From Minisyncoccia bacterium (GTDB taxonomy: Bacteria > Patescibacteriota > Minisyncoccia > Phycocordibacterales > Phycocordibacteraceae): a DNA stretch of 64,000 nucleotides. Shown here piece by piece: positions 2-16,880 of the stretch. The notes beneath the pieces were generated by a model. The model searched no databases. It was not told the origin of the DNA and saw only the letters and a list, made by a program, of their open reading frames with translations. Each line of letters begins with the position of its first letter. Position 1 is the first letter of the stretch. The position numbers and the translations under genes were made by a program. The stretch covers positions 99,200 through 163,199 of the forward strand of contig JBBQUV010000001.1 of the NCBI GenBank assembly GCA_038212075.1, written 5' to 3'.

Positions 2-3000
2 CCAGACATCACCATTCCCCTTGGCGTGGTGGTTACGGCTCTTCCTGGTGCGTCTGCGGCAGATGTTGAGCGCCTTGTTACCGACAAAATTGAGAGCGGC
101 GTGCTTGGTGTTGAGCATGTTTCAAAAGTTACTTCGTCTTCAGGAAACGGTATCTCGCAGGTATCAGTGGAGTTTGACGCTAGCGCAAATATTGATAAAT
201 CGATTCAGCTTTTAAAAGACGCGGTTGATAAGGTTCGTCCCGATCTTCCAGAAGAAGCGCTTGCTCCATCAGTATCAGACGTAAACTTTGCCGACCAACC
301 CATTCTGGTTGTTTCGGTTTCCGGTAATCTTGCCGACGGCGAACTTACTGCTCTTGGTGAACAAGTGAGCGATGAAATAAAACGAGTGTCGGGTGTTTCA
401 AAAGTGAGTGTTTCTGGTGTGCGCGCTCGGCAAGTACAGGTAATTGTGAGGTCTGAACGCCTTGCACAGTACGGCCTTTCTTTGCAGGACGTTACCAATG
501 CCATTCGTTCTGCTGGTATCGCCGCACCTGCGGGGGACATCACGGTAGACGGTGTGCGCTATGCAGTGCGTTTTGAATCAGGCCTTGCGACGACCGATAA
601 GGTGGCAAGCCTTGCTATGCCGGGCCCGGGTGGCACACCGGTGCATATTTCTGATGTCGCCGATGTGGTAGACGGTCTTGCTGACGCAAGCACCTATTCA
701 CGTGTTTCTGTCGGTGGAAAGCCAGCACAGCCATCACTGACTCTTACGGTGTTCAAAAGCCGTGGTGGCAACATCGTTGCAACGGGTAATGCGGTTATTA
801 AAAAGTTTGATGATTTGAAATCTGGTATTCTCGCTGGCACCGACACGGTTATTTCTTTTGACGGCGCAGAACAAGTAAATAAAAGTCTTACCGAACTCAC
901 TCGTGCTGGTATTGAAACGGTTATTTTGGTTATGCTCGTGCTGTACGTCACTCTTGGTCTTCGTGAGTCGCTTGTTGCCGCGGCTTCTATCCCACTCTCC
1001 TTTCTTATCGCCTTTCTTGGCATGTATGCCGCAGGCAACACGCTCAATAACGTATCGTTGTTCTCACTCATTCTCGCTATTGGTATTCTCGTGGATTCGG
1101 GCATTGTGGTGGTGGAAGCATTTCACACTCGTCTGTTGAAATTCGGTAATAAAGAAGAAGCGGCAGTTGCCGCTATTCGTGAATACGCGTGGCCACTGAT
1201 TGCAGGAACCTTTACCACCATTGTGGTATTTCTACCGCTCTTCTTTCTTTCGGGTATTGTCGGCAAATTCCTTGCAAGCATTCCGTTCACGGTGGTGTTC
1301 GTACTTCTTGCCAGCATCTTTGTTGCACTTGGCCTGGTTCCCCTTCTTGCGATTTTCTTTGTGCATCCGGTGCATGGCGACCTTGAATCTCGCCAAGAAA
1401 GATACAACGTGCTTGTACGCACCTGGTACCAAGGATTTCTTCGTCGCCTATTGCAAAACAAGCGTGATCAAAACCGATTTCTTATTGTTGCTATCGTACT
1501 TTTTTTCATAGCGCTCGCGCTTCCGGCAACGGGTCTTTTAAAGTCCATTTTCTTTCCGCAGGCAGATTCTGACTACATTTATGTTCAAATTGAAAAAGCC
1601 CAAGGCACAGAACTCTCTGAGACCGATCTTTCAGTGCGTGAAGTGGAAGAAGTGCTTTACCATAATCCGCACATTGCATCGTTTGTGAGTGCGACAGGTA
1701 TTGGCAGTTCGTTTGCCGGCGGCGGGCTTGGTGGCGGTCCTTCAGCCAATAGCGAAATCGGTAACATCACCGTAAATTTGCCGAAAGGCCACACACAAAC
1801 CAGCGCCGCACTCGTGAATGAATTGCGTCAAGCGCTTTCCACGATTACGTCCGCAACCATCACCGTAGGAGAACCGCAGGGCGGACCTCCTTCCTCGTCT
1901 CCAATCACCATAACCTTCTCTGGAAACGATCTTGGCGCACTCGCGGTAACCGGCGACGCGGCGACGCATACGCTGTCTGATATTCCGGGCGTGGTGAATA
2001 TAAACACAAGTACAAAAAATTCTGGAGCGGAATTTGTGGTAACGCTTGATAGCGCCAAGGCAACCGAACTCAATGTATCGCCCGTAGTGGTGGCAGACAC
2101 GCTTCGCACGGCGCTTTTCAGTGCAAAGGCAACATCTATTCGTACCGGCAAAGACGATATTGAAGTGCGCACCAAACTTGACTTGAATCCTGCGTACAAG
2201 GATCCGAGCGAAACCACGCACGTAACTATTGACGCCGTTCGCTCACTCGCTATTCCAAGCCCAACAGGTACCGTTCCTCTTTCAACTATTGCCACTATTA
2301 CCTACGAACCTGCACAAACCTCTATCGCGCACGAAGCAGGTACGCGCATCACTACGGTAACGGCAGACGTTGCACAAAATACTAATGCGATTGAAGCCAC
2401 GAATACGTTTGTAAAACAATTTACCGCAGACAAGATTGCGCCAGGCGTAGTGATGAAAATCGGCGGCGCGAGCGAAGATGTAAATAAATCATTCACTGAA
2501 CTCTTTATCGCACTTATTGCGGGCGCGGCGCTCATGCTTTCCATTCTTATTCTTGAATTTAACTCGTTCCGCCACTCTTTTTACCTGCTTTCCATCATTC
2601 CGCTCTCGCTTATCGGTGTGTTTGCCGGGCTTACGCTTGTCGGACAGCCGCTTTCGCTCACTTCCATGCTTGGTGTTATTGCGCTTGCGGGTGTCATCAT
2701 CAATCACGCGATTATTCTTATGGACTCTATCGCGCGCATTCATCGTGAACACAGCGAACTTGGACTTGAAGATGTAGTGATTGAAGCGGCATCAACACGT
2801 CTGCGCCCCATTTTGCTCACAACGGTAGTGACGGTTATCGGTATGATTCCGCTTACGTTTGCATCCGCTTTCTGGGGACCACTTGCCTTTGCAATTATGT
2901 TTGGTCTCGCCTTCTCGCTGTTCCTTACGCTCGGACTTATTCCCATTCTCTATCATCGGTGGCCAGGTAAGGCGGTACGCGAGCACTACGCACAGAGGGG

Positions 3001-3009: not shown

Positions 3010-4275
3010 TTATTTTCCTGTCGTAAGAAACTGTACTGCACGTGCCTTTTGTGGGTCTTTACTTGCGCGCACGTCGTCTTGGGTGCGGTTTACATTGATG
3101 TCTGGCGTAATGCCTCCCTCTGAAATGTTTACTCCGGCTGGTGTAAGCCAGCGAGCAACAGTCACTTTGAGCGATGCGGAGTCAAGATCAATCAATTGTT
3201 GCACTGAGCCCTTACCAAATGAACGTGTGCCAATAAGTGTAGCAACGCTGTTGTCATGGAGCGCGCCGGCAAGAATTTCTGAAGCTGAAGCAGATCCTTG
3301 GTCAATGAGAATCACCACCTTTGTGCCACTTGGCATATCGGCGGTACCACTGCTACGGTGTGTCACATTTTCTTGTTTTCCTTTAAAGTCCTCGGTCACC
3401 ACGGTTGTTCCTTCTGGCAAGAAATGGCTTGCAATGTTTACTGCGGCGTCAAGGTAGCCTCCCGGGTCTCCGCGCAAATCAAGTATTAATTTTTTAGAAC
3501 CTGATGCCTTAAACGCGGCAAACGCCGTATCAAACAGTTCTGCAGAGTTTCCGCTAAACTCAAAGAGTGCGATGGAATATACGCCCGTGGCTTTATCAAA
3601 CGAATTATCAATTTCTGGCACCTGTATGGTGTCACGCACTACGGGAATAGTGATCATTTTGCCATCACGGTAGATGACAAACGTTACCGTTGTGCCCTTT
3701 AGGCCGCGAATTGCCTTCACTGCTTCATCGGTTGTCATACCATCGGTTGTTTTTCCATCTATAGACAACACAATATCTCCTGACAGAATGCCGGCTTTTT
3801 CTGCCGGCGTGCCCTTCAAAGGCGCAATAACCGTAAGTAGGCCATCTTTGTTTGCTCCAATTTCCATACCGACGCCCCCAAAATTACCGGCAATGTTTTC
3901 TTGAAACACTTTTGCTTCAGCGGGCGGCATAAATACCGTATAGGGGTCTTTATAGGACTCTGTGAGTCCTTTGATAGCGCCGTATATCTTTTCCTTTATT
4001 GTGGGAAGCGTTGTTGATGCGTGTGTCTGCACAAAATTTGCATCAAGCGTATTCCATGCCTTCCAGAAGTCGGTGAGGTCGGCGTTTTGGTCGGGCGTAG
4101 GATCAAGCCCGTCACCAAGCAACGGTATAGTTGAAAGTAACGACGAGCCCGAATGCGCGCCACCAACAAAAAGTCCTGTAGAAAACGCAACGACCGCAAC
4201 GAGTGCAAGTGCGATACCGTTACGCACCGTGTGCGTGGTGCGTGATGGGGAAATGTCTGCGTCGTCGTCTTGCAT
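3010..4275 (-). CDS. ctp: C-terminal processing peptidase (S41 family) with PDZ domain, N-terminal membrane anchor
   Basis: PDZ-like segment followed by an S41 catalytic region (GSASASEILAGAL...FGKGSVQ). N-terminal TM helix. Confidence 0.85.
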   Translation of the reverse strand: MQDDDADISPSRTTHTVRNGIALALVAVVAFSTGLFVGGAHSGSSLLSTIPLLGDGLDPTPDQNADLTDFWKAWNTLDANFVQTHASTTLPTIKEKIYGAIKGLTESYKDPYTVFMPPAEAKVFQENIAGNFGGVGMEIGANKDGLLTVIAPLKGTPAEKAGILSGDIVLSIDGKTTDGMTTDEAVKAIRGLKGTTVTFVIYRDGKMITIPVVRDTIQVPEIDNSFDKATGVYSIALFEFSGNSAELFDTAFAAFKASGSKKLILDLRGDPGGYLDAAVNIASHFLPEGTTVVTEDFKGKQENVTHRSSGTADMPSGTKVVILIDQGSASASEILAGALHDNSVATLIGTRSFGKGSVQQLIDLDSASLKVTVARWLTPAGVNISEGGITPDINVNRTQDDVRASKDPQKARAVQFLTTGK

Positions 4276-4333
4276 TGCGCGTTATTCTAACACACGCATA
4301 GTATGCGGGTGGTGTGCTGGTATACTTTCTTAT

Positions 4334-5251
4334 ATGCTCATTCGTCACGCACGCGGTGATATTACTTGGATAGACATCGAAGCTCCGACAGAAGCTGAGC
4401 TCGGCGGCATTCTCCACGAATTCAACATCGATCCGCGTATTGAAGACGAAATTATTTCTCCAACGCCGTACCCACTTTTCATTCCATTCACAAATTATCT
4501 GTACCTCGTGCTTCATTTCCCTACTGCGCTTCCAGACGGGGGTACTAAAAATCAAGAAATCGACTTTATTGTTGGCGAAAACTTTATTATTACCGGGAGA
4601 TACGAAGTCATTGACCCCATCCATAACCTTCACAAGGTATTTGAAGCCGAAGAACTGCTGGGACTTCCTAAAAGCGAAGTGAAAACCCACGTGCTTTTGG
4701 AGCGGATTTTCCGTCGCCTATATGGCGCACTCGGAAATGAAGCAGAAGACACTGCACGAAAACTAGAGCGCATTGAACGTGATATTTTTTCTGGAAAAGA
4801 ACGAGAAAATGTGCACGCTATTTCTGAAGTCGGCCGTACCCTGCTTCGCTTTGAAACAACACTTGCACGACACCAGGAGCCACTATCCACATTTATAGAC
4901 GAACTCACTTCTAAACGATTTTTTGGCAAAGAGTTTGCCGAACATGGGGCACACATAAAAGCTGAACGCGATCACGCCGTCACGCTCATTACGTCGTATC
5001 GTGCCGTTGCTACTGAATTGCGCGATACCAACGACTCACTGCTTTCAACCTCTCAAAACGAAGTAATGAAAACACTCACGGTGGTTACGTTCATTATTTT
5101 TCCACTTTCGCTCATCGCTTCCTTGTTCCAAATGAACACTCCAGGAACACCCCTTTCGAACAATCCGAACGCTTTTTGGATTGTGCTCGCATTCATGCTC
5201 ATTGTTTCTAGCCTGCTTGGGCTGTTCGTCATTAGACGCAAGTGGCTGTAA
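4334..5251 (+). CDS. corA: CorA family magnesium/cobalt transporter
   Basis: About 306 aa with two C-terminal TM helices and an (F/G)MN-type motif (LFQMNTPG) followed by a basic C-terminus. Start set at the internal ATG at 4334, because the longer ORF (from 3962) overlaps the converging ctp gene. Confidence 0.75.
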   Translation: MLIRHARGDITWIDIEAPTEAELGGILHEFNIDPRIEDEIISPTPYPLFIPFTNYLYLVLHFPTALPDGGTKNQEIDFIVGENFIITGRYEVIDPIHNLHKVFEAEELLGLPKSEVKTHVLLERIFRRLYGALGNEAEDTARKLERIERDIFSGKERENVHAISEVGRTLLRFETTLARHQEPLSTFIDELTSKRFFGKEFAEHGAHIKAERDHAVTLITSYRAVATELRDTNDSLLSTSQNEVMKTLTVVTFIIFPLSLIASLFQMNTPGTPLSNNPNAFWIVLAFMLIVSSLLGLFVIRRKWL

Positions 5252-5260
5252 CATAGGGCT

Positions 5261-6715
5261 ATGTCTTGGTTTAGTGGTCTCTGGAAATCATCCACCACCC
5301 TTACCCCATCCTCTGCGGGCGTTTTTTTCGTTAACACATTATCCGGAAAAAAAGAGATATTTGTCCCCGCAAAGCCTCCACTCGTCACCATGTACTCGTG
5401 CGGACCAACGGTATATAGCAAACAGCACATTGGAAACCTGAAGGCACCGCTGTTCGCTGACCTTGTTGCGCGTGCGCTTCTTGAAGCCGGATACCATGTT
5501 CGTCGCGTCATCAACATCACCGATGTCGGCCATTTAGTCGGTGACGGAGACCACGGTGAAGATAAAATGGTAAAAGGTGCTCGCGAAGAACAATCTTCAC
5601 CGAAAGAAATTGCAGAGCGGTATACCAGCATTTTTCTTGATGACTTACGCGCCCTCAACATAGATACGAACACCATTCTTTTTCCACACGCAACGGAATA
5701 TATCCCAGAGCAGATTGCGATGATACAAACACTGTACGACCGCGGATCTGCGTATCGTGCAGAAGACGGTGTGTATTTTGATACCAGCACATTTTCCAAT
5801 TATGGAAAACTCGGTGGCGTGAACGAAGCAAAACTTCTTCCTGGTGCACGGGTAGAAAAAATTACTACTAAAAGAAATGCACATGACTTTGTGCTGTGGC
5901 GTGACGCAAAGCCTGCAGACCTTCAGCAATGGGATTCTCCGTGGGGTCGTGGAAATCCGGGCTGGCATATTGAATGTTCCGCAATGATTCGTGCGCTTCT
6001 TGGTATAGAGATCGACATTCACACCGGTGGCATAGACCACATTCCTACGCATCACAACAACGAAATAGCACAATCTGAGTGCGCAAATGGTCGTCCGCTT
6101 GCGCGGTATTGGATGCATGAAGCATTTGTAAACGTTGCGGATGAAAAAATTTCTAAATCGCTCAAAAATGACGTGTATCTTTCAGATATTGAAGCACGCG
6201 GCATAGATCCGCTCGCGCTCCGTTATTTCTTTTTGCAAGCGCACTATGCCCGCCCAGTGTCGTTTACCTGGAATGCGCTTGAGGCAAGCGCGGAAGCGTA
6301 CGAACGGTTACAGCGGTTGGCAACAGAAGTACAAAAAGAATCTGCACGGAAGACTAAAAATTCCGACGCTCGCGACCGTTTTATCGCGCTTGTGCGTGAC
6401 GATCTTTCCACTCCACAAGCACTCGCCTTTTTGTGGGAAACTCTAAAGGGTGACGAATACTCGCCTGAAGAAAAATGGGGTTTGCTGGTATCGGCAGACG
6501 CTCTCCTCGGGCTCCCCCTTACCGCCCTTCCTCTGGTGGACAAAGAGCCGAGCGCATACCCCGAAGACGTCCAAAAGCTCGTCTACGAGCGAGATTTAGC
6601 CCGTGGAGCGAAGGATTTTGCCCAGGCCGATGCACTACGTTATCAACTCCAAAACAGGGGATATCGTGTGGAAGACTCGCCTTCTGGCACCCTATTGACC
6701 AAAGAGGTACGGTGA
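5261..6715 (+). CDS. cysS: cysteinyl-tRNA synthetase
   Basis: Class I aaRS with HIGH-like (QHIGN) and KMSKS (KISKS) motifs and the CysRS-specific PGWHIECSAM zinc-site motif. Confidence 0.9.
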   Translation: MSWFSGLWKSSTTLTPSSAGVFFVNTLSGKKEIFVPAKPPLVTMYSCGPTVYSKQHIGNLKAPLFADLVARALLEAGYHVRRVINITDVGHLVGDGDHGEDKMVKGAREEQSSPKEIAERYTSIFLDDLRALNIDTNTILFPHATEYIPEQIAMIQTLYDRGSAYRAEDGVYFDTSTFSNYGKLGGVNEAKLLPGARVEKITTKRNAHDFVLWRDAKPADLQQWDSPWGRGNPGWHIECSAMIRALLGIEIDIHTGGIDHIPTHHNNEIAQSECANGRPLARYWMHEAFVNVADEKISKSLKNDVYLSDIEARGIDPLALRYFFLQAHYARPVSFTWNALEASAEAYERLQRLATEVQKESARKTKNSDARDRFIALVRDDLSTPQALAFLWETLKGDEYSPEEKWGLLVSADALLGLPLTALPLVDKEPSAYPEDVQKLVYERDLARGAKDFAQADALRYQLQNRGYRVEDSPSGTLLTKEVR

Positions 6716-13407: not shown

Positions 13408-13773
13408 ATGGCTGAAGGCGCGCCAGGACAGGGTGGGCTTGCGGGGCTTATGGATGCCATAACGCAACGACGTGAAAAAGCGTTGAGCGAAGGCGGAGAA
13501 ATTTTGAACCCGCGCAATATGAATCTTTTGGTCACCGAAATTCATAACAGAATGAAGAAGTACGGCGAGCCTTTCTCTTCAGCATTTGACTGGGTATTTA
13601 ATAGCGATCGTTGGCAAAAGCCACCTATAGACGCCGATAAGCGCCCAAGGTATGCAGAATTTGCTCACGACTATTTTAAAGAAACCATCCCTACCCCCGT
13701 TTCTCCTAACGAGGTGTCCCCCATGCCTACAAAACAGGGCGACCTATTCATTGATAAAGAAGATAAAGCGTGA
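13408..13773 (+). CDS. hypothetical protein (121 aa)
   Basis: ATG 2 nt after the stop of the upstream gene, suggesting translational coupling. No recognisable domain. Confidence 0.5.
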   Translation: MAEGAPGQGGLAGLMDAITQRREKALSEGGEILNPRNMNLLVTEIHNRMKKYGEPFSSAFDWVFNSDRWQKPPIDADKRPRYAEFAHDYFKETIPTPVSPNEVSPMPTKQGDLFIDKEDKA

Positions 13774-13834
13774 TATAATACTTTTCGGACGTTGGGTACA
13801 CGGTGGAGTTCAATCTTGAAAACAAGAGGGTCCA

Positions 13835-14134
13835 ATGTCCAAAGTTGTAAAAGTACCGTATCCGGTGAATGCCAAGCTTGGTCAATCCGTAAGGATTACG
13901 GGCATTCTCCCAACACGTGCTCGTGACGTTGCTATCGCGGCGTTTGACGCCTTCGAAAAACACTATTGCGGCACTGTTGAAGTGATTGGTCGGCCTGACG
14001 GCATCCACCTCACCCGTCCGTTCGCGGTTGGTGCAAGTGGTATCGAGGAGGACGCGGAAGAATTCGCGCTGTCCATCGAGAAGTATTTCGGCTTCAAAAC
14101 CGAAACTTCGCCAGTACAAATGATGTTCGCCTGA
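13835..14134 (+). CDS. hypothetical protein (99 aa)
   Basis: ORF with upstream AGAGGG ribosome-binding site; no recognisable domain. Confidence 0.5.
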   Translation: MSKVVKVPYPVNAKLGQSVRITGILPTRARDVAIAAFDAFEKHYCGTVEVIGRPDGIHLTRPFAVGASGIEEDAEEFALSIEKYFGFKTETSPVQMMFA

Positions 14135-14140
14135 ATAACC

Positions 14141-14200
14141 GAACGAGAGACGAGTGGTGTCGCAGAACGCGACTCCCTCGTTCTCCCGGGCGGTTTTTTG
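14141..14200 (+). terminator. putative Rho-independent terminator
   Basis: Imperfect long hairpin (gaacgag...ctcgttc) then cccgggcgg followed by tttttt. Confidence 0.4.
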
Positions 14201-14268
14201 ATACTTGCCTTCCCTATATTTTATGCTATATTTACTGTGTTCGGTTTAACCAAAGAGGAGGATGTCGC

Positions 14269-14667
14269 ATGAGCGACACTACGTTCTTTAACACAACCAA
14301 CCCGAAGCCACAGACTATTCCCGTCGATGTACGGGGATATACCTGGCCGAGGAGACTCACAATAATTGCTTGGGCGTTACTCACTACGGTGATTATCGCC
14401 CTTACTGCTTTTGATTTTGCGTGTTTTAACGCAGGATCGGAACTCTTCTGGGATATTTCATGGAAACTTGTACCGAACTATGAGTTCGCCAAGCCCGTGA
14501 TTCATCACTTTAGCGTTCCGCTGATTGATTGGGGACGATATCCATCGTTCTTCCTTTCCGTCTGCCTTGGAATCAAGACGCTTCTTGCGCTCTTTGTTCC
14601 GCCGGCAATCCGCACGCACCATGTCCGCTTCGAGCTGACAGAAGTGCCTGCACCTCAAAAAAAATAG
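14269..14667 (+). CDS. hypothetical membrane protein (132 aa)
   Basis: Strong ribosome-binding site (AAAGAGGAGG) 7 nt upstream; two predicted TM helices. Confidence 0.55.
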   Translation: MSDTTFFNTTNPKPQTIPVDVRGYTWPRRLTIIAWALLTTVIIALTAFDFACFNAGSELFWDISWKLVPNYEFAKPVIHHFSVPLIDWGRYPSFFLSVCLGIKTLLALFVPPAIRTHHVRFELTEVPAPQKK

Positions 14668-14836
14668 CAATTATTGCGAATCCCAACGGTTCGCATCTCA
14701 ACGACTCACACTCACCAACCAAGGAGGCTACTATGCCATCACTGACTGAATGAATGTCCGCCGCAGAGCTCTGCGAACCGTTTTTTGGTATCTACGCTTC
14801 ATATTTACTCAATTTCCTGTTATAAAAACTGTACTT

Positions 14837-14908
14837 GGCCCTATCGTCTAACGGTTAGGACGGAGCCTTCTCAAGGCTTAAATCGGGGTTCGATTCCCCG
14901 TAGGGTCA
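14837..14908 (+). tRNA. tRNA-Glu (anticodon CUC)
   Basis: Manual cloverleaf fold: 7-bp acceptor stem (one G-U pair), D-arm GTCT/GGAC, anticodon loop TTCTCAA, T-arm CGGGG-TTCGATT-CCCCG, discriminator A. CCA is not encoded. Confidence 0.85.
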
Positions 14909-15049
14909 CAAATTTTGCAAAGCAATAATTTGTGATTTTTGAACGTGTGGAGTCACGTTCAAAAAGAATCGAAACGCGCAGCCGCGACGGCGGCGAGCGG
15001 GGGTCGCGGAATTTTCCAGCAGGAAAATATCTGTGACCGATGCGTGCTT

Positions 15050-15082
15050 GTGTAATCACAAGACACTTCCCCGTAGGGTCAC
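15050..15082 (+). repeat. 33-bp direct repeat copy 1 (gtgtaatcacaagacacttccccgtagggtcac), containing a copy of the tRNA-Glu 3' end
   Basis: Identical to 15240-15272. The last 17 nt match tRNA-Glu 14894-14910. Confidence 0.9.
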
Positions 15083-15132
15083 AAAAATAACGAGACGACT
15101 GCAAGGCAGTCGGCGATTATATTTTTGTAGAT

Positions 15133-15148
15133 CCTACGGGGAATCGAA
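15133..15148 (-). repeat. inverted copy of tRNA-Glu T-loop/acceptor 3' segment (16 nt, ttcgattccccgtagg)
   Basis: Its reverse complement matches tRNA-Glu positions 14891-14906. Confidence 0.8.
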
Positions 15149-15239
15149 TGCGAGCGCGGGCACCAGTTCAGCAGAACTGGTCGTGCGAGGCGGCTCGCGA
15201 AAATAGTGAGTGACGACGAACTATTTTTGTGAGAGATAC

Positions 15240-15272
15240 GTGTAATCACAAGACACTTCCCCGTAGGGTCAC
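15240..15272 (+). repeat. 33-bp direct repeat copy 2
   Basis: Perfect identity to 15050-15082, 190 bp away. Confidence 0.9.
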
Positions 15273-15421
15273 TCGACACCGTAGCAAATTTTATGTGGCG
15301 CAATTATCGCGCTGTAGCTGAGCCATATTTCACCTGCAAAGTTCGATTCCTCTCAAGCCCCTTACCGAGAGTCGAACTCGTCAACGATATTGGATGCACG
15401 GTTTGGTATACTTATAAGCGT

Positions 15422-15661
15422 ATGGCTAAGAAGACGCATCGAGATACAAAGGTTGGGCAGTGGACATCTTCCCTCCCTCCAGCAGAACCTAATGCCGTTA
15501 CTAAAGTCACATTGGGTGGCAAGGATTTTCATATTGCAAAAGTAGTGCGTCATGCCGACACTGGTCGGTTCATAGAGATTTTGGAAGCCGGTGCACGTGG
15601 AGGTCATTTTGCGGACCGTTCACCAAACAACGATGAGTCCGGACGCCGCAAAGCAAAATAA
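15422..15661 (+). CDS. hypothetical small protein, candidate antitoxin partner of the downstream PIN gene
   Basis: 79-aa ORF immediately upstream of, and overlapping, the PIN gene; no known antitoxin fold recognised. Confidence 0.4.
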   Translation: MAKKTHRDTKVGQWTSSLPPAEPNAVTKVTLGGKDFHIAKVVRHADTGRFIEILEAGARGGHFADRSPNNDESGRRKAK

Positions 15662-16232
15662 GGGTTCTGGCGAGGAGGCTAAGCTTCCTCTAAGAAACAT
15701 AATATTGGATACCAACGTTTTTGACCTTCTCTCAAATAAGGAACTGGAGCCGAAGTTCATCGCGCTGCTGAGAGAGGCCGTTGGTTTGGGATACGGTATT
15801 GTCATCTGCGATATTGTTCTTTTTGAATTGCTACAAGAGGCTTCGATGGATAAGGAGCTGTGGATCATGCAGCAACTTTCTGACGTACCAAGTTTGCCGC
15901 TGACCCAAGAAGTCATGTTCGCCGCTGCGCATGTGGCGTCATTATATAAAGAGGAAGGTTTGGAATTGAAGCAGTTTGCAATTGGAGACCGAATTATAGC
16001 CGGGACTTCCGTTATGAATAACGCTCTGATTCTTACTAAGAATGGTAGGGATTTCCCGGAGCCGTTTTTTAAGGAATTAGATCGCCGCCATGTCGATTAC
16101 GAGAACGGTTCAGTTCAAGCCTGCGTATATTTGTACTTCAAAGAGCCTCAATTGGATGTCATCACAAAACACCACTCAATGCGTACGGCTTCCATTCAGA
16201 AGAAAGCAAAAACTCCTAAGCAAAAGCCTTAA
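15633..16232 (+). CDS. PIN domain protein (VapC-like toxin) with about 55-aa C-terminal extension
   Basis: IILDTNVFD N-terminal acidic motif, LFELL, IGDRIIAGTS, TKNGRDF – conserved PIN acidic residues. Start uncertain; GAGGAGG ribosome-binding site at 15667. Confidence 0.7.
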   Translation: MSPDAAKQNKGSGEEAKLPLRNIILDTNVFDLLSNKELEPKFIALLREAVGLGYGIVICDIVLFELLQEASMDKELWIMQQLSDVPSLPLTQEVMFAAAHVASLYKEEGLELKQFAIGDRIIAGTSVMNNALILTKNGRDFPEPFFKELDRRHVDYENGSVQACVYLYFKEPQLDVITKHHSMRTASIQKKAKTPKQKP

Positions 16233-16282: not shown

Positions 16283-16880
16283 CTACGCGCTTCCGTTTCC
16301 CGACTTTGGAATATGCTCGACGTTGTAACGTTCGGGATTCCCGTTACGCGCTTTTTCTACCGGTACGAACTGTCCATTGATATTGTCCCGCCCAAGTTTG
16401 AACGATTTGGAGACTGACATGTTGATGTTGGGTTTGCTATTTAACCCAAGAGTGGCCGGAGATGGTTTCAAGGAACCTTATTTGCCTCAATTATACTTCC
16501 GCCGTTGCCCAGGTAAAGTGGATATCTCTTTCTCTCTCTAGTTAGCACCGTCACTCGCTCACACGGACTTAATAAGGCCGCCCGTGTTCGGGACGAGCTG
16601 TCGCGAGTGGACTTCAGGGACGTTACGCAGCAAGCTGATCAGGTCCCTCTTCTCTCGCTCTTCTAGCCGCTTCACGCTTCCGATTGAATTTCTCAATGTT
16701 CTTCCATCCGGGATTGGGCACCGCGATTTTGGTGTGCGTCGGTGCGGGGGCACTTTTTGACAAATTTATGCCTGCTTCAAAAATAGCTAGGATTTTGCTT
16801 GCGCGAGTTCGAGGTCCGTCCCGACATGGGTCACTAAAAACAAAACCGCCACATTTAGGGACGGTTTTGTCAGTCAGCAC
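16283..16880 (-). pseudogene. decayed ORF fragments (three short ORFs in two frames, interrupted by stops)
   Basis: ORFs 16623-16880, 16559-16753 and 16283-16471 overlap in different frames, with an in-frame stop between the last two. No intact gene fits 16233-16880. Confidence 0.35.
16836..16872 (-). terminator. putative terminator downstream of the 3D-domain gene
   Basis: Hairpin aaaaccgcc...ggacggtttt with flanking T/A runs. Confidence 0.45.

Follow-up and report, generated by a model that had tools for sequence, protein, structure and literature searches.

Genes for tRNAs are the classical targets of genomic islands, the far end of which is marked by a displaced tRNA fragment according to PMC4383910, and attachment sites (attB) within the T-loop are known, for example that of mycobacteriophage Ms6 as given in PMC1762012. 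Islands and prophages of this kind (T-loop attB, Ms6, Islander-type) insert at the tRNA 3′ end, regenerate the tRNA with sequence of the element, leave a fragment reaching from the T-loop to the end at the far boundary, and can accrete in tandem. Here we compare with them a locus in a stretch of 64,000 nt from a Minisyncoccia bacterium (Patescibacteriota; contig JBBQUV010000001.1, positions 99,200 to 163,199 of the forward strand), the whole of which is referred to as the window, and whose closest DNA matches are metagenome-assembled genomes (MAGs) labelled Candidatus Saccharibacteria. Behind the tRNA-Glu gene of the window the 3′ end of the tRNA recurs, and an earlier note on this DNA, made from the sequence alone, had taken the spacers for decayed islands that had lost their integrase. 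They are two tandem copies, e1 and e2, of a conserved structured element, and the comparison with other loci shows that both are complete members of a new family of ~130–200-nt elements, structured in a strand-specific manner, free of protein cargo, associated with many tRNA species, and having ends that copy the 3′ end of the host tRNA. The element class appears to be undescribed so far; a full-text search of the literature found no published description of such an element.

The repeated sequence, TTCCCCGTAGGGTCAC, is the final 16 nt of tRNA-Glu (14894–14909) and is exact at 14894, 15067 and 15257 (window scan, blastn-short), which confirms the recurrence described in the earlier note. The 17-mer first noticed is exact at 14894 and 15067 and agrees at 16 of 17 positions at 15257, where its final base is T; three matches to it were found in the window, versus 0.10 expected from shuffles. 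At 15067 the match to the tRNA and its trailer runs over 19 nt, with the trailer AAA included. The start-to-start spacings are 173 and 190 nt, and the direct pair of 33 bp (15050–15082 and 15240–15272) is indeed 100% identical, the chance expectation for a 33-mer repeat in 64 kb being ~1e-11 by arithmetic. The inverted copy is exact over 16 nt at 15133–15148, extends to 19 nt with one mismatch (15130–15148) and goes deeper into the T-loop (TTCGA) than the direct copies do. The degenerate fourth direct copy that the earlier note placed at about 15339 did not hold up: it sits at 15341–15350 (GTTCGATTCC), is at chance level in blastn-short (E=3.2) and has no match to the covariance model R1 described below when the whole window is searched. 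The intervals between the repeats, 157 and 174 nt long, contain no plausible coding sequence.

That the spacers might encode a small structured RNA, which had been offered as an alternative, is the best-supported part of the earlier note, since the spacers match a covariance model from other loci and the modelled helices covary. Twenty-five units, none of them from the window, were aligned with MAFFT as the seed alignment A1, a three-way-junction structure was written for A1, and R1 was built from it. Searched with R1, the 64-kb window yields only two matches, one in e1 (69.8 bits, E=7.5e-19) and one in e2 (15.5 bits, E=0.02); tRNA-Tyr has none. In A1, 89.6% of the cells pair versus 35–46% in slid controls, double changes occur at 18 of the 32 pairs, and RNAalifold independently predicts the same helices P1, P2 and P3 including a bulged A. 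The larger alignment A2, with 115 distinct aligned matches, is model-fitted and so leans towards the structure; 90.7% of its cells pair (31–50% in slid controls) and compensatory changes are found at 24 of the 32 pairs, the middle pair of P2, for example, being CG in 68 sequences, GC in 20, AU in 17 and UA in 7. Fourteen of the 16 P3 pairs covary in A2.

The consensus core begins with AA(A/G) as J1/2, followed by P2 (G-N-C/G-N′-C with a GGA/GA internal loop and a variable hairpin) and GG as J2/3. Next comes P3, in which GGUCGCG pairs with YGUGACC; this helix includes two G·U pairs, has one A bulged out and carries the loop AGCA. The last helix, P4, is optional: it is present in 13 of 50 units and has a UAAU or UACU loop or a GAUGCGUG start. 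One of the G·U pairs is kept in 109 of the 115 sequences, while the second position alternates between G·U and G-C (58 vs 51). A conserved G·U would be a C·A mismatch on the other strand, and therefore the tRNA-sense strand is the structured one. The folding energies from RNAfold for the sense and antisense strands are -54.0 vs -47.9 kcal/mol for e1 and -69.2 vs -55.5 kcal/mol for e2; the z-scores are -4.6 and -7.4, respectively, and the fold of e2 reproduces P1–P3. The family thus shows the generic marks of a structured RNA: more than one helix has compensatory covariation, the G·U pairs are specific to one strand, and many lineages carry it. The constant GGGG of the core was considered as a T-stem 5′ strand, which would place the insertion in the T-loop, and was rejected because the host T-stems differ. 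Against Rfam 15, only tRNAs reach the gathering score, at E<=10 the spacers give nothing but noise, and no known self-cleaving ribozyme is matched. At one locus (L019), ~200–226 nt 3′ of tRNA-Glu, the sequence ..GTCTCGACTGATGAGTCCAAAAGGACG holds the CUGAUGAG core typical of hammerhead ribozymes; it follows directly on a divergent region that resembles an element, is truncated where the contig ends and receives no Rfam call.

The distribution of the family was obtained from two scans: one of genomes, one per species, with the 3′ 21-mer of tRNA-Glu, which returned 120 loci, and one of metagenomes with a core-only pattern, which gave at least 120 loci. In a dozen loci of the candidate phyla radiation (CPR), a single tRNA-Glu is followed 125–310 nt on by a partial copy of its 3′ end, and ARAGORN identifies these copies as fragments, not tRNAs. 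Emticicia loci with two matches simply have tandem tRNA genes. The DNA between tRNA and copy is conserved across MAGs of Saccharibacteria, Paceibacteria, Kaiserbacteria, Nomurabacteria and Taylorbacteria in a shared order: a hairpin, (GTGACCCTAC)GGGGAATCGAA, AG-N-CGGAG, a variable hairpin, GAG-N′-CGGGGTCGCG, a hairpin, YGTGACCGA and the tRNA-end copy. A unit accordingly has four parts, namely a variable and often terminator-like hairpin; the reverse complement of the T-loop and the T-stem 3′ strand of the host tRNA, sometimes with the acceptor 3′ strand too, and occasionally with a hairpin inserted between these parts; the three-way-junction core (P2, P3 and, where present, P4); and, last, the host tRNA repeated in direct orientation, starting at about position 57–59 (G57/T59) and running to position 74.

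R1 has 121 matches in 100 metagenome loci and 26 in genome loci (147 in total). Those in genomes all lie in CPR-labelled MAGs, and there is no match in the loci labelled Emticicia, Leadbetterella, Sphingobium or ‘Gammaproteobacteria’ that have the same tRNA end. In the metagenome loci, units lie 24–100 nt after at least 24 tRNA species covering 14 amino acids, and the inverted and direct blocks both match the own tRNA of each locus. An element is located 3′ of tRNA-Glu in ~20% of the related CPR genomes or tRNA-Glu loci. Tandem units are common and occur also in L106, L125, L157, L171 and L200, and the units of the window are syntenic with those of L005 and L096. At two loci with tRNA-Arg(CCG), a second model match on the opposite strand directly follows the first element (L139:1764-1866(-) and L149:4855-4957(-)), forming an inverted pair 3′ of the tRNA.

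The features of the two units are collected in Table 1. Since the spacers are units with a defined architecture, the model assigns the repeated tRNA-Glu ends to the 3′ side of P1, the helix that closes e1 and e2, and makes the inverted copy the predicted 5′ strand of P1 in e2, where 15130–15148 pairs with 15254–15272 in the minimum-free-energy (MFE) fold of RNAfold. The e1 unit is 77% identical to the element of L027, and its inverted block has shrunk to GTGA; the 5′ half of e2 has a layout nearly identical to that of L103. The part of the 33-bp repeat that is not tRNA is no arbitrary DNA of an element arm; it belongs to the family helix P4, being the 3′ 17 nt of P4 in e1. Two hairpins had been reported between the repeats. 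The first, cgactgc/gcagtcg, is real; of the second, the inner accagttc/gaactggt stands as the inner part of P2 in e2, while the enclosing gcgagc/gctcgc is not a family pairing, GCTCGCG being the 5′ strand of P3 in e2 with TGTGAG as its partner (cmsearch alignment, RNAfold). The base of this P3 is a compensatory change relative to the family GGUCGCG/UGUGACC. Between the tRNA and the end of e2 the window has no promoter-like site and no terminator-like site on the + strand.

Table 1. Positions of tRNA-Glu, of the parts of e1 and e2 in the window, and of recombinase sites in other loci
Feature	Position	Strand	Evidence
tRNA-Glu (anticodon CUC), no encoded CCA	14837..14909	+	ARAGORN; Rfam tRNA 61.5 bits
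Element 1 (e1), first tandem unit	14910..15082	+	R1 match 14954-15057, 69.8 bits, E=7.5e-19
e1 5′ region, hairpins CACAAATT..AATTTGTG (14907-14934) and TTTTTGAACGTG..CACGTTCAAAAA (14936-14965)	14907..14965	+	Inverted-repeat search; comparison with L027, L065
e1 conserved block GAATCGAAA, reverse complement of T-loop TTCGATT plus junction A	14966..14974	+	Invariant in family alignment A1
e1 helix P2: outer CGC/GCG, internal loop, inner CCGC-GACG-GCGG hairpin	14975..14999	+	cmsearch alignment; family covariation
e1 helix P3: base GGUCGCG/UGUGACC with two G·U pairs, bulged A, AGCA loop	15002..15038	+	cmsearch; RNAfold MFE
e1 optional helix P4 (GAUGCGUG class), hairpin CUUGUG-UAAU-CACAAG	15039..15066	+	RNAfold; family P4 statistics
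e1 terminal direct copy, tRNA positions 59-74	15067..15082	+	Exact-match scan, blastn-short
Element 2 (e2), second tandem unit, L103/L106/L157 subtype	15083..15272	+	R1 match 15129-15250, 15.5 bits, E=0.02
e2 5′ palindrome CACAAAAATA..TATTTTTGTAG, apical hairpin CGACTGC-AAG-GCAGTCG at 15096-15112	15080..15130	+	Inverted-repeat search
e2 inverted tRNA-end copy (reverse complement of positions 54-72, one mismatch), predicted 5′ strand of closing helix P1	15130..15148	+	
e2 helix P2, holds ACCAGUUC-AGCA-GAACUGGU	15150..15191	+	cmsearch alignment; RNAfold
e2 helix P3: base CUCGCG/UGUGAG and AAAAUAGU/ACUAUUUU	15194..15233	+	Inverted-repeat search; cmsearch; RNAfold
e2 P4 remnant	15234..15256	+	Final 17 nt identical to 3′ part of e1 P4
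e2 terminal direct copy, tRNA positions 59-74, then unrelated flank TCGACACC	15257..15272	+	
Large serine recombinase and tail-coding sites	L036:1507-3237(-); L123:10001-11707(+), tail-coding 5253-5333; L245:5612-5707; L246:6585-6683; L247:4637-4738		

Several observations bear on how the units reached their places. Orthologous tRNA-Glu sites without a unit exist at L017, L074 and L091. CCA follows the terminal copy but not the gene in 14 cases, with the reverse in 4, and where tRNA genes are clustered, the next tRNA lies right behind the terminal copy (at a distance of 1 nt in L192). Because of this polarity and abutment, the distal copy is suggested to be the displaced original 3′ end, the proximal trailer having arrived with the unit. 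The reading of the repeats as an attachment footprint is therefore partly right: the repeated tRNA ends mark inserted units, the distal one behaving as the displaced original end, but they are not the remnants of islands. In the MAG CAZLUD01, the loci of tRNA-Glu(CUC) and tRNA-Glu(UUC) have unrelated flanks and near-identical units (2 mismatches and a 54-nt insertion), with an identity that breaks off precisely where the terminal copy stands. A unit is therefore discrete, and copies of it can pass from one tRNA gene to another if their 3′ ends agree. Relative to L002, the element of L037 has within P3 a 54-nt insertion bounded by GCGACC direct repeats, which is the sole large difference between the two elements of one MAG.

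We lean towards the view that these units form an undescribed family of small insertions at tRNA 3′ ends in Patescibacteria, located just 3′ of the tRNA genes, transcribed together with the tRNA and folding into a Y-shaped RNA. A unit would be a small, protein-less insertion aimed at a tRNA gene, at its 3′ end. Once the unit is in place, the tRNA would take the 3′ end and trailer borne by the element, and the original 3′ end would be moved to the far side of the unit. Since every unit closes with a new copy of the target, more units could stack in tandem. Recombination within the repeat of 16–25 nt might then copy a unit to any tRNA gene sharing the 3′ end, either by excision of a circle and re-integration or through repair of a break with a filled site as the template. 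The tRNA-sense strand of the element would be read, probably from a read-through transcript of the tRNA; in favour of joint transcription are the lack of promoter-like and + strand terminator-like sites ahead of the end of e2 in the window and the 14 of 122 units located between tRNA genes of one strand. In the Y-shaped RNA the P1 stem with the discriminator would imitate the acceptor/T-arm stack of its own tRNA, a mimicry that would let tRNA-processing enzymes set the RNA ends. The junctions between tRNA end and element (..GGGTCAC^AAA.., the caret marking the junction here and below) would serve as attB for islands of large serine recombinases (LSRs) in relatives.

Described tRNA-like and tRNA-linked RNAs (viral tRNA-like structures, mascRNA, the tRNA-like domain of tmRNA and the 3′ETS-leuZ sponge, from a 3′ external transcribed spacer) resemble the predicted RNA, which would end in an acceptor/T-arm-like stem with discriminator, would lie beside or within a tRNA transcript, and might plausibly owe its ends to RNase P, RNase Z and the CCA-adding enzyme. 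In contrast to them, the stem of the unit is a continuous helix that leads into a three-way junction, not a T-loop, and its sequence is copied from the neighbouring tRNA. The Rfam models of tRNA-like RNAs do not match the elements; only the tRNA itself matches mascRNA, weakly. The units also resemble cis-mobilizable elements (CIMEs) and miniature inverted-repeat transposable elements (MITEs) in being short, lacking a recombinase and having target-related repeats at their bounds, and they would likewise depend on functions provided in trans. Unlike in CIMEs and MITEs, the terminal repeats are copied from each host tRNA, not fixed, the conservation follows the pattern of an RNA fold, and the copies of a genome are old and divergent, not near-identical, with one recent copy event (CAZLUD01) and no autonomous relative found. 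A recent transposition burst is rejected because of the divergence within contigs. No autonomous parent carrying the core was found. In the search for an intact island at this site, the 29-mer of P4 and core and the tRNA 3′ end were absent from IMG/VR, and the elements had no match among INPHARED phages. No protein family is common to the regions downstream of the elements, which hold housekeeping genes (Mur ligase, PBP, thioredoxin reductase).

A number of points weigh against the view of transcribed tRNA-end insertions. The RNA nature is deduced only from the strand-specific G·U pairs and the genomic context, and in front of many units stands a terminator-like hairpin that carries a T-run and would limit read-through from the tRNA promoter. 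The e1 unit is almost without an inverted block, with a weak P1, and e2 reaches only 15.5 bits. The complementarity of P1 could merely follow from both blocks copying the tRNA, and in units with a decayed terminal copy the inverted block agrees more often with the tRNA (62) than with that copy (32). The units have no linked recombinase, an LSR being near 1 of the 120 metagenome loci listed, and the chemistry of serine recombinases makes no repeats of 16–25 nt. Nor does the view account for the acquisition of the correct inverted and direct blocks at a new tRNA species. Finally, the core identity of units on the same contig is 0.63, versus 0.61 for random pairs, as would be expected of an old host RNA maintained by vertical descent more than of a mobile element that is active.

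Such a host RNA would be non-mobile, an RNA of the 3′ external transcribed spacer kept by selection, with its stem derived from a local duplication of the tRNA end and its tandem copies from unequal crossing-over. It would account for the old and diverged cores within one genome, for the strongly conserved structure, for the units inside tRNA clusters (14 of 122 units lie between same-strand tRNA genes) and for the synteny of the units in the window, L005 and L096. We consider it unlikely, though the strongest of the alternatives, because the elements are patchy (roughly 20% of tRNA-Glu loci) with empty orthologous sites, because two tRNA-Glu loci of one MAG have near-identical units with sharp boundaries, because terminal copies are frequently decayed, and because the same core at at least 24 tRNA species requires repeated independent acquisition.

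Relatives also carry LSR islands at these junctions. In L036, L085, L121, L122, L123 and L245–L247 an LSR gene, with the Pfam domains Resolvase, Recombinase and Zn_ribbon, lies antisense directly after the tRNA, and its final ~12 codons (..LV^TLRGIEPRF) are read from tRNA antisense. The 707 homologues of the recombinase (E<=1e-20) have two C-terminal forms, either tails read from tRNA antisense (several tRNAs) or a conserved tail, xLxSLSWNTIExxVLxWK. The latter, ~30–40 aa long, is encoded at the far end of the island, which closes with ..GGGC^TCAC(CA)^, and this location places attP inside the 3′ end of the recombinase gene and the crossover at the last bases of the tRNA. Judging from these sequences, integration at the tRNA 3′ end would swap the conserved C-terminal tail for ~12 tRNA-antisense codons, and the piece at the far end would be the displaced tail-coding part. 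The suggestion that intact islands might occupy the site in relatives was therefore correct as to position, LSR islands sitting exactly at these junctions, and incorrect as to the repeats: the crossover is the short TCAC(CA), with no long tRNA-end repeats. Two further finds belong to the islands themselves: a LOOT RNA (RF03000, 78.2 bits) lies inside the LSR island of L123 (6837-6953, +), and the L122 island beside tRNA-Glu encodes a reverse transcriptase (RVT_1) as well as another serine recombinase, its second, in which the conserved attP-form tail is retained (404-1675(-), 3486-5022(+)). The recombinase was not found in IMG/VR.

Beyond the island junction an element is present in L123, L247, L246 and L027 and absent in L245, so that the elements lie outside the islands and form the B′ side of attB. 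The LSR as the maker of the repeats, or the element as an arm of attP, was accordingly rejected, because in L123 and L247 the recombinase's own tail-coding end abuts TCAC and the element lies beyond the island. L214 has an LSR gene in antisense orientation right behind the terminal copy of an element. Among the metagenome loci listed, 1 of 120 has a recombinase near a unit. LSRs leave no long repeat and hence do not explain the units. Compared with LSR attB–attP systems of the phiC31/Bxb1 type, the likeness is that islands in relatives insert exactly at the TCAC ending the tRNA-end copies and that the junctions of the window look like usable attB sites; the differences are the crossover of a few bases without a 16–25-nt repeat, the position of the element outside the islands and the lack of a recombinase gene in the window. 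The element junction is attB-like, and attB × attB is not known to be a substrate for LSRs. The window has three GGGTCAC^ junctions like those at island ends in relatives (..GGGC^TCAC(CA)^ beside A/T-rich sequence), which are candidate attB sites, and the TCAC^AAA at the end of the e1 terminal copy is of the junction type used by the islands in L027, L123 and L247. No integrase was found in the window, tblastn of 120 serine recombinases giving nothing significant.

Farther on, at ~16815–16860, the window has ..CCCGACATGGG^TCAC^TAAAAACAAAACCGCC..GGCGGTTTTG, which resembles an island end (..GGGC^TCAC^) followed by a terminator. The segment 15273–16832 might be a degraded island at the end of e2, closing with CATGGG^TCAC^TAAAAAC (~16822–16838); it has no significant recombinase remnant in tblastn. 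At 16431–16523 (+) there is a weak similarity to the N-terminal resolvase region of LSRs (36% over 33 aa, E ~0.06, several homologous queries), which is not significant.

The association with islands raises the alternative that the core and its tRNA-end blocks work at the level of DNA, whether duplex, cruciform or single-stranded, and offer recombinases an extended attachment site or a landing pad, instead of acting as RNA. Four of the five LSR islands with a resolved far end abut an element, versus the ~20% background, the LSR of L214 follows a terminal copy, every unit contributes another junction between a tRNA end and A-rich sequence, and the hairpin behind the tRNA forms the centre of a long palindrome. 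We nevertheless regard a role as DNA as improbable: duplex DNA has no need of the conserved G·U, a C·A mismatch on the other strand; the L245 recombinase inserted at a tRNA-Glu without an element; and 119 of the 120 listed metagenome loci with units have no recombinase nearby. Known LSRs use att sites of ~40–50 bp, not ~150 bp.

A more far-reaching idea, to which we give a low probability, is that the Y-shaped RNA, carrying both sense and antisense of the tRNA 3′ end, is a cofactor specific for tRNA ends which programmes or gates recombination at tRNA genes (by LSR islands or another enzyme), or which spreads as a tRNA-tagged RNA through a reverse-transcribed intermediate. If true, this would amount to DNA targeting specified by RNA in a new manner, or to a ‘genomic-tag’ retro-element in bacteria. 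A guide-RNA-like module, with the core as the scaffold and the terminal 16 nt as the guide to the tRNA gene (cf. TnpB omega-RNA with its guide at the 3′ end, and the homing crRNA of Cas12k, aimed at tRNA genes), would direct a nuclease, transposase or recombinase encoded elsewhere. Such a module would suit the scaffold of ~100–130 nt followed by an exact match of 16–18 nt to the adjacent tRNA gene, with TTCGA before it in the tRNA, and the tandem arrays. It is very unlikely, given that no effector gene is linked in any locus, that the ‘guide’ is paired to the inverted block in P1 (88% paired), that Rfam has no match to omega-RNA or crRNA families and that all guides within an array are identical; the comparison with guide and bridge RNAs (TnpB omega-RNA, Cas12k homing crRNA, IS110 bridge RNA) failed on the missing linked effector and the paired terminal segment. 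Inert attachment scars, left by serial islands in tRNA-Glu that lost integrase and cargo and with spacers decaying as junk, are consistent with the direct repeats of the tRNA 3′ end and the absence of an integrase nearby and are effectively excluded by the conservation of the spacers over CPR classes and at least 24 tRNA species with compensatory changes, by the finding of e1 at E=7.5e-19 with a model built elsewhere, by the lack of an LSR remnant anywhere in the window and by the tight unit size.

The comparison with classical islands leads to the same place. Direct tRNA 3′ repeats bounding an insert are present, an integrase or cargo between them is not, and the interval is conserved between hosts, no parent element having been found. 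In further contrast to tRNA-targeting islands, the units of ~130–200 nt have an extra inverted tRNA end and a covarying, strand-specific core, which is the same at at least 24 tRNA species.

If transcribed, the elements would represent a large unrecognised class of structured RNAs in Patescibacteria, with at least 120 metagenome loci, in a group that makes up a sizeable share of bacterial diversity and whose RNA biology is barely known. To our knowledge, a closing stem copied from whichever tRNA precedes it is a property without parallel in catalogued RNA families, and it would point either to tRNA mimicry, in processing or as a decoy, or to a novel mode of DNA insertion at tRNA genes. The family explains a recurrent puzzle of annotation, tRNA fragments stacked behind tRNA genes, and a covariance model is now available for annotating such loci. 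It also establishes in what natural setting the attB sites of a large family of tRNA-targeting serine recombinases lie; these enzymes are of interest as tools for genome engineering.

Genes near the elements in the window include L21, RmuC, YqeY, FtsW, MraY and ScpA/B, with a small open reading frame (ORF) and a PIN-domain ORF just 3′ of the elements. The small ORF (79 aa, 15422–15661, +) overlaps the PIN-domain ORF (15591–16232, +; PF01850, E=5.4e-5) directly 3′ of e2; the two are a probable toxin-antitoxin pair, and at other loci no link of such a pair to the elements was seen. After the PIN gene, an inverted repeat of 30 nt (16227–16256/16444–16473, 87% complementary) flanks 187 nt of non-coding-looking DNA, and the segment 16227–16473 may represent a mobile or regulatory element of small size. 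When the proteins of the flanking ORFs were looked up by exact match, only one contig of 1.4 kb turned up (L001, Logan SRR19962015); it is 99.9% identical to window positions 13450–14864 and the sole further assembly found of this locus. This contig breaks inside the tRNA-Glu gene, consistent with the repeats causing breaks in assemblies.

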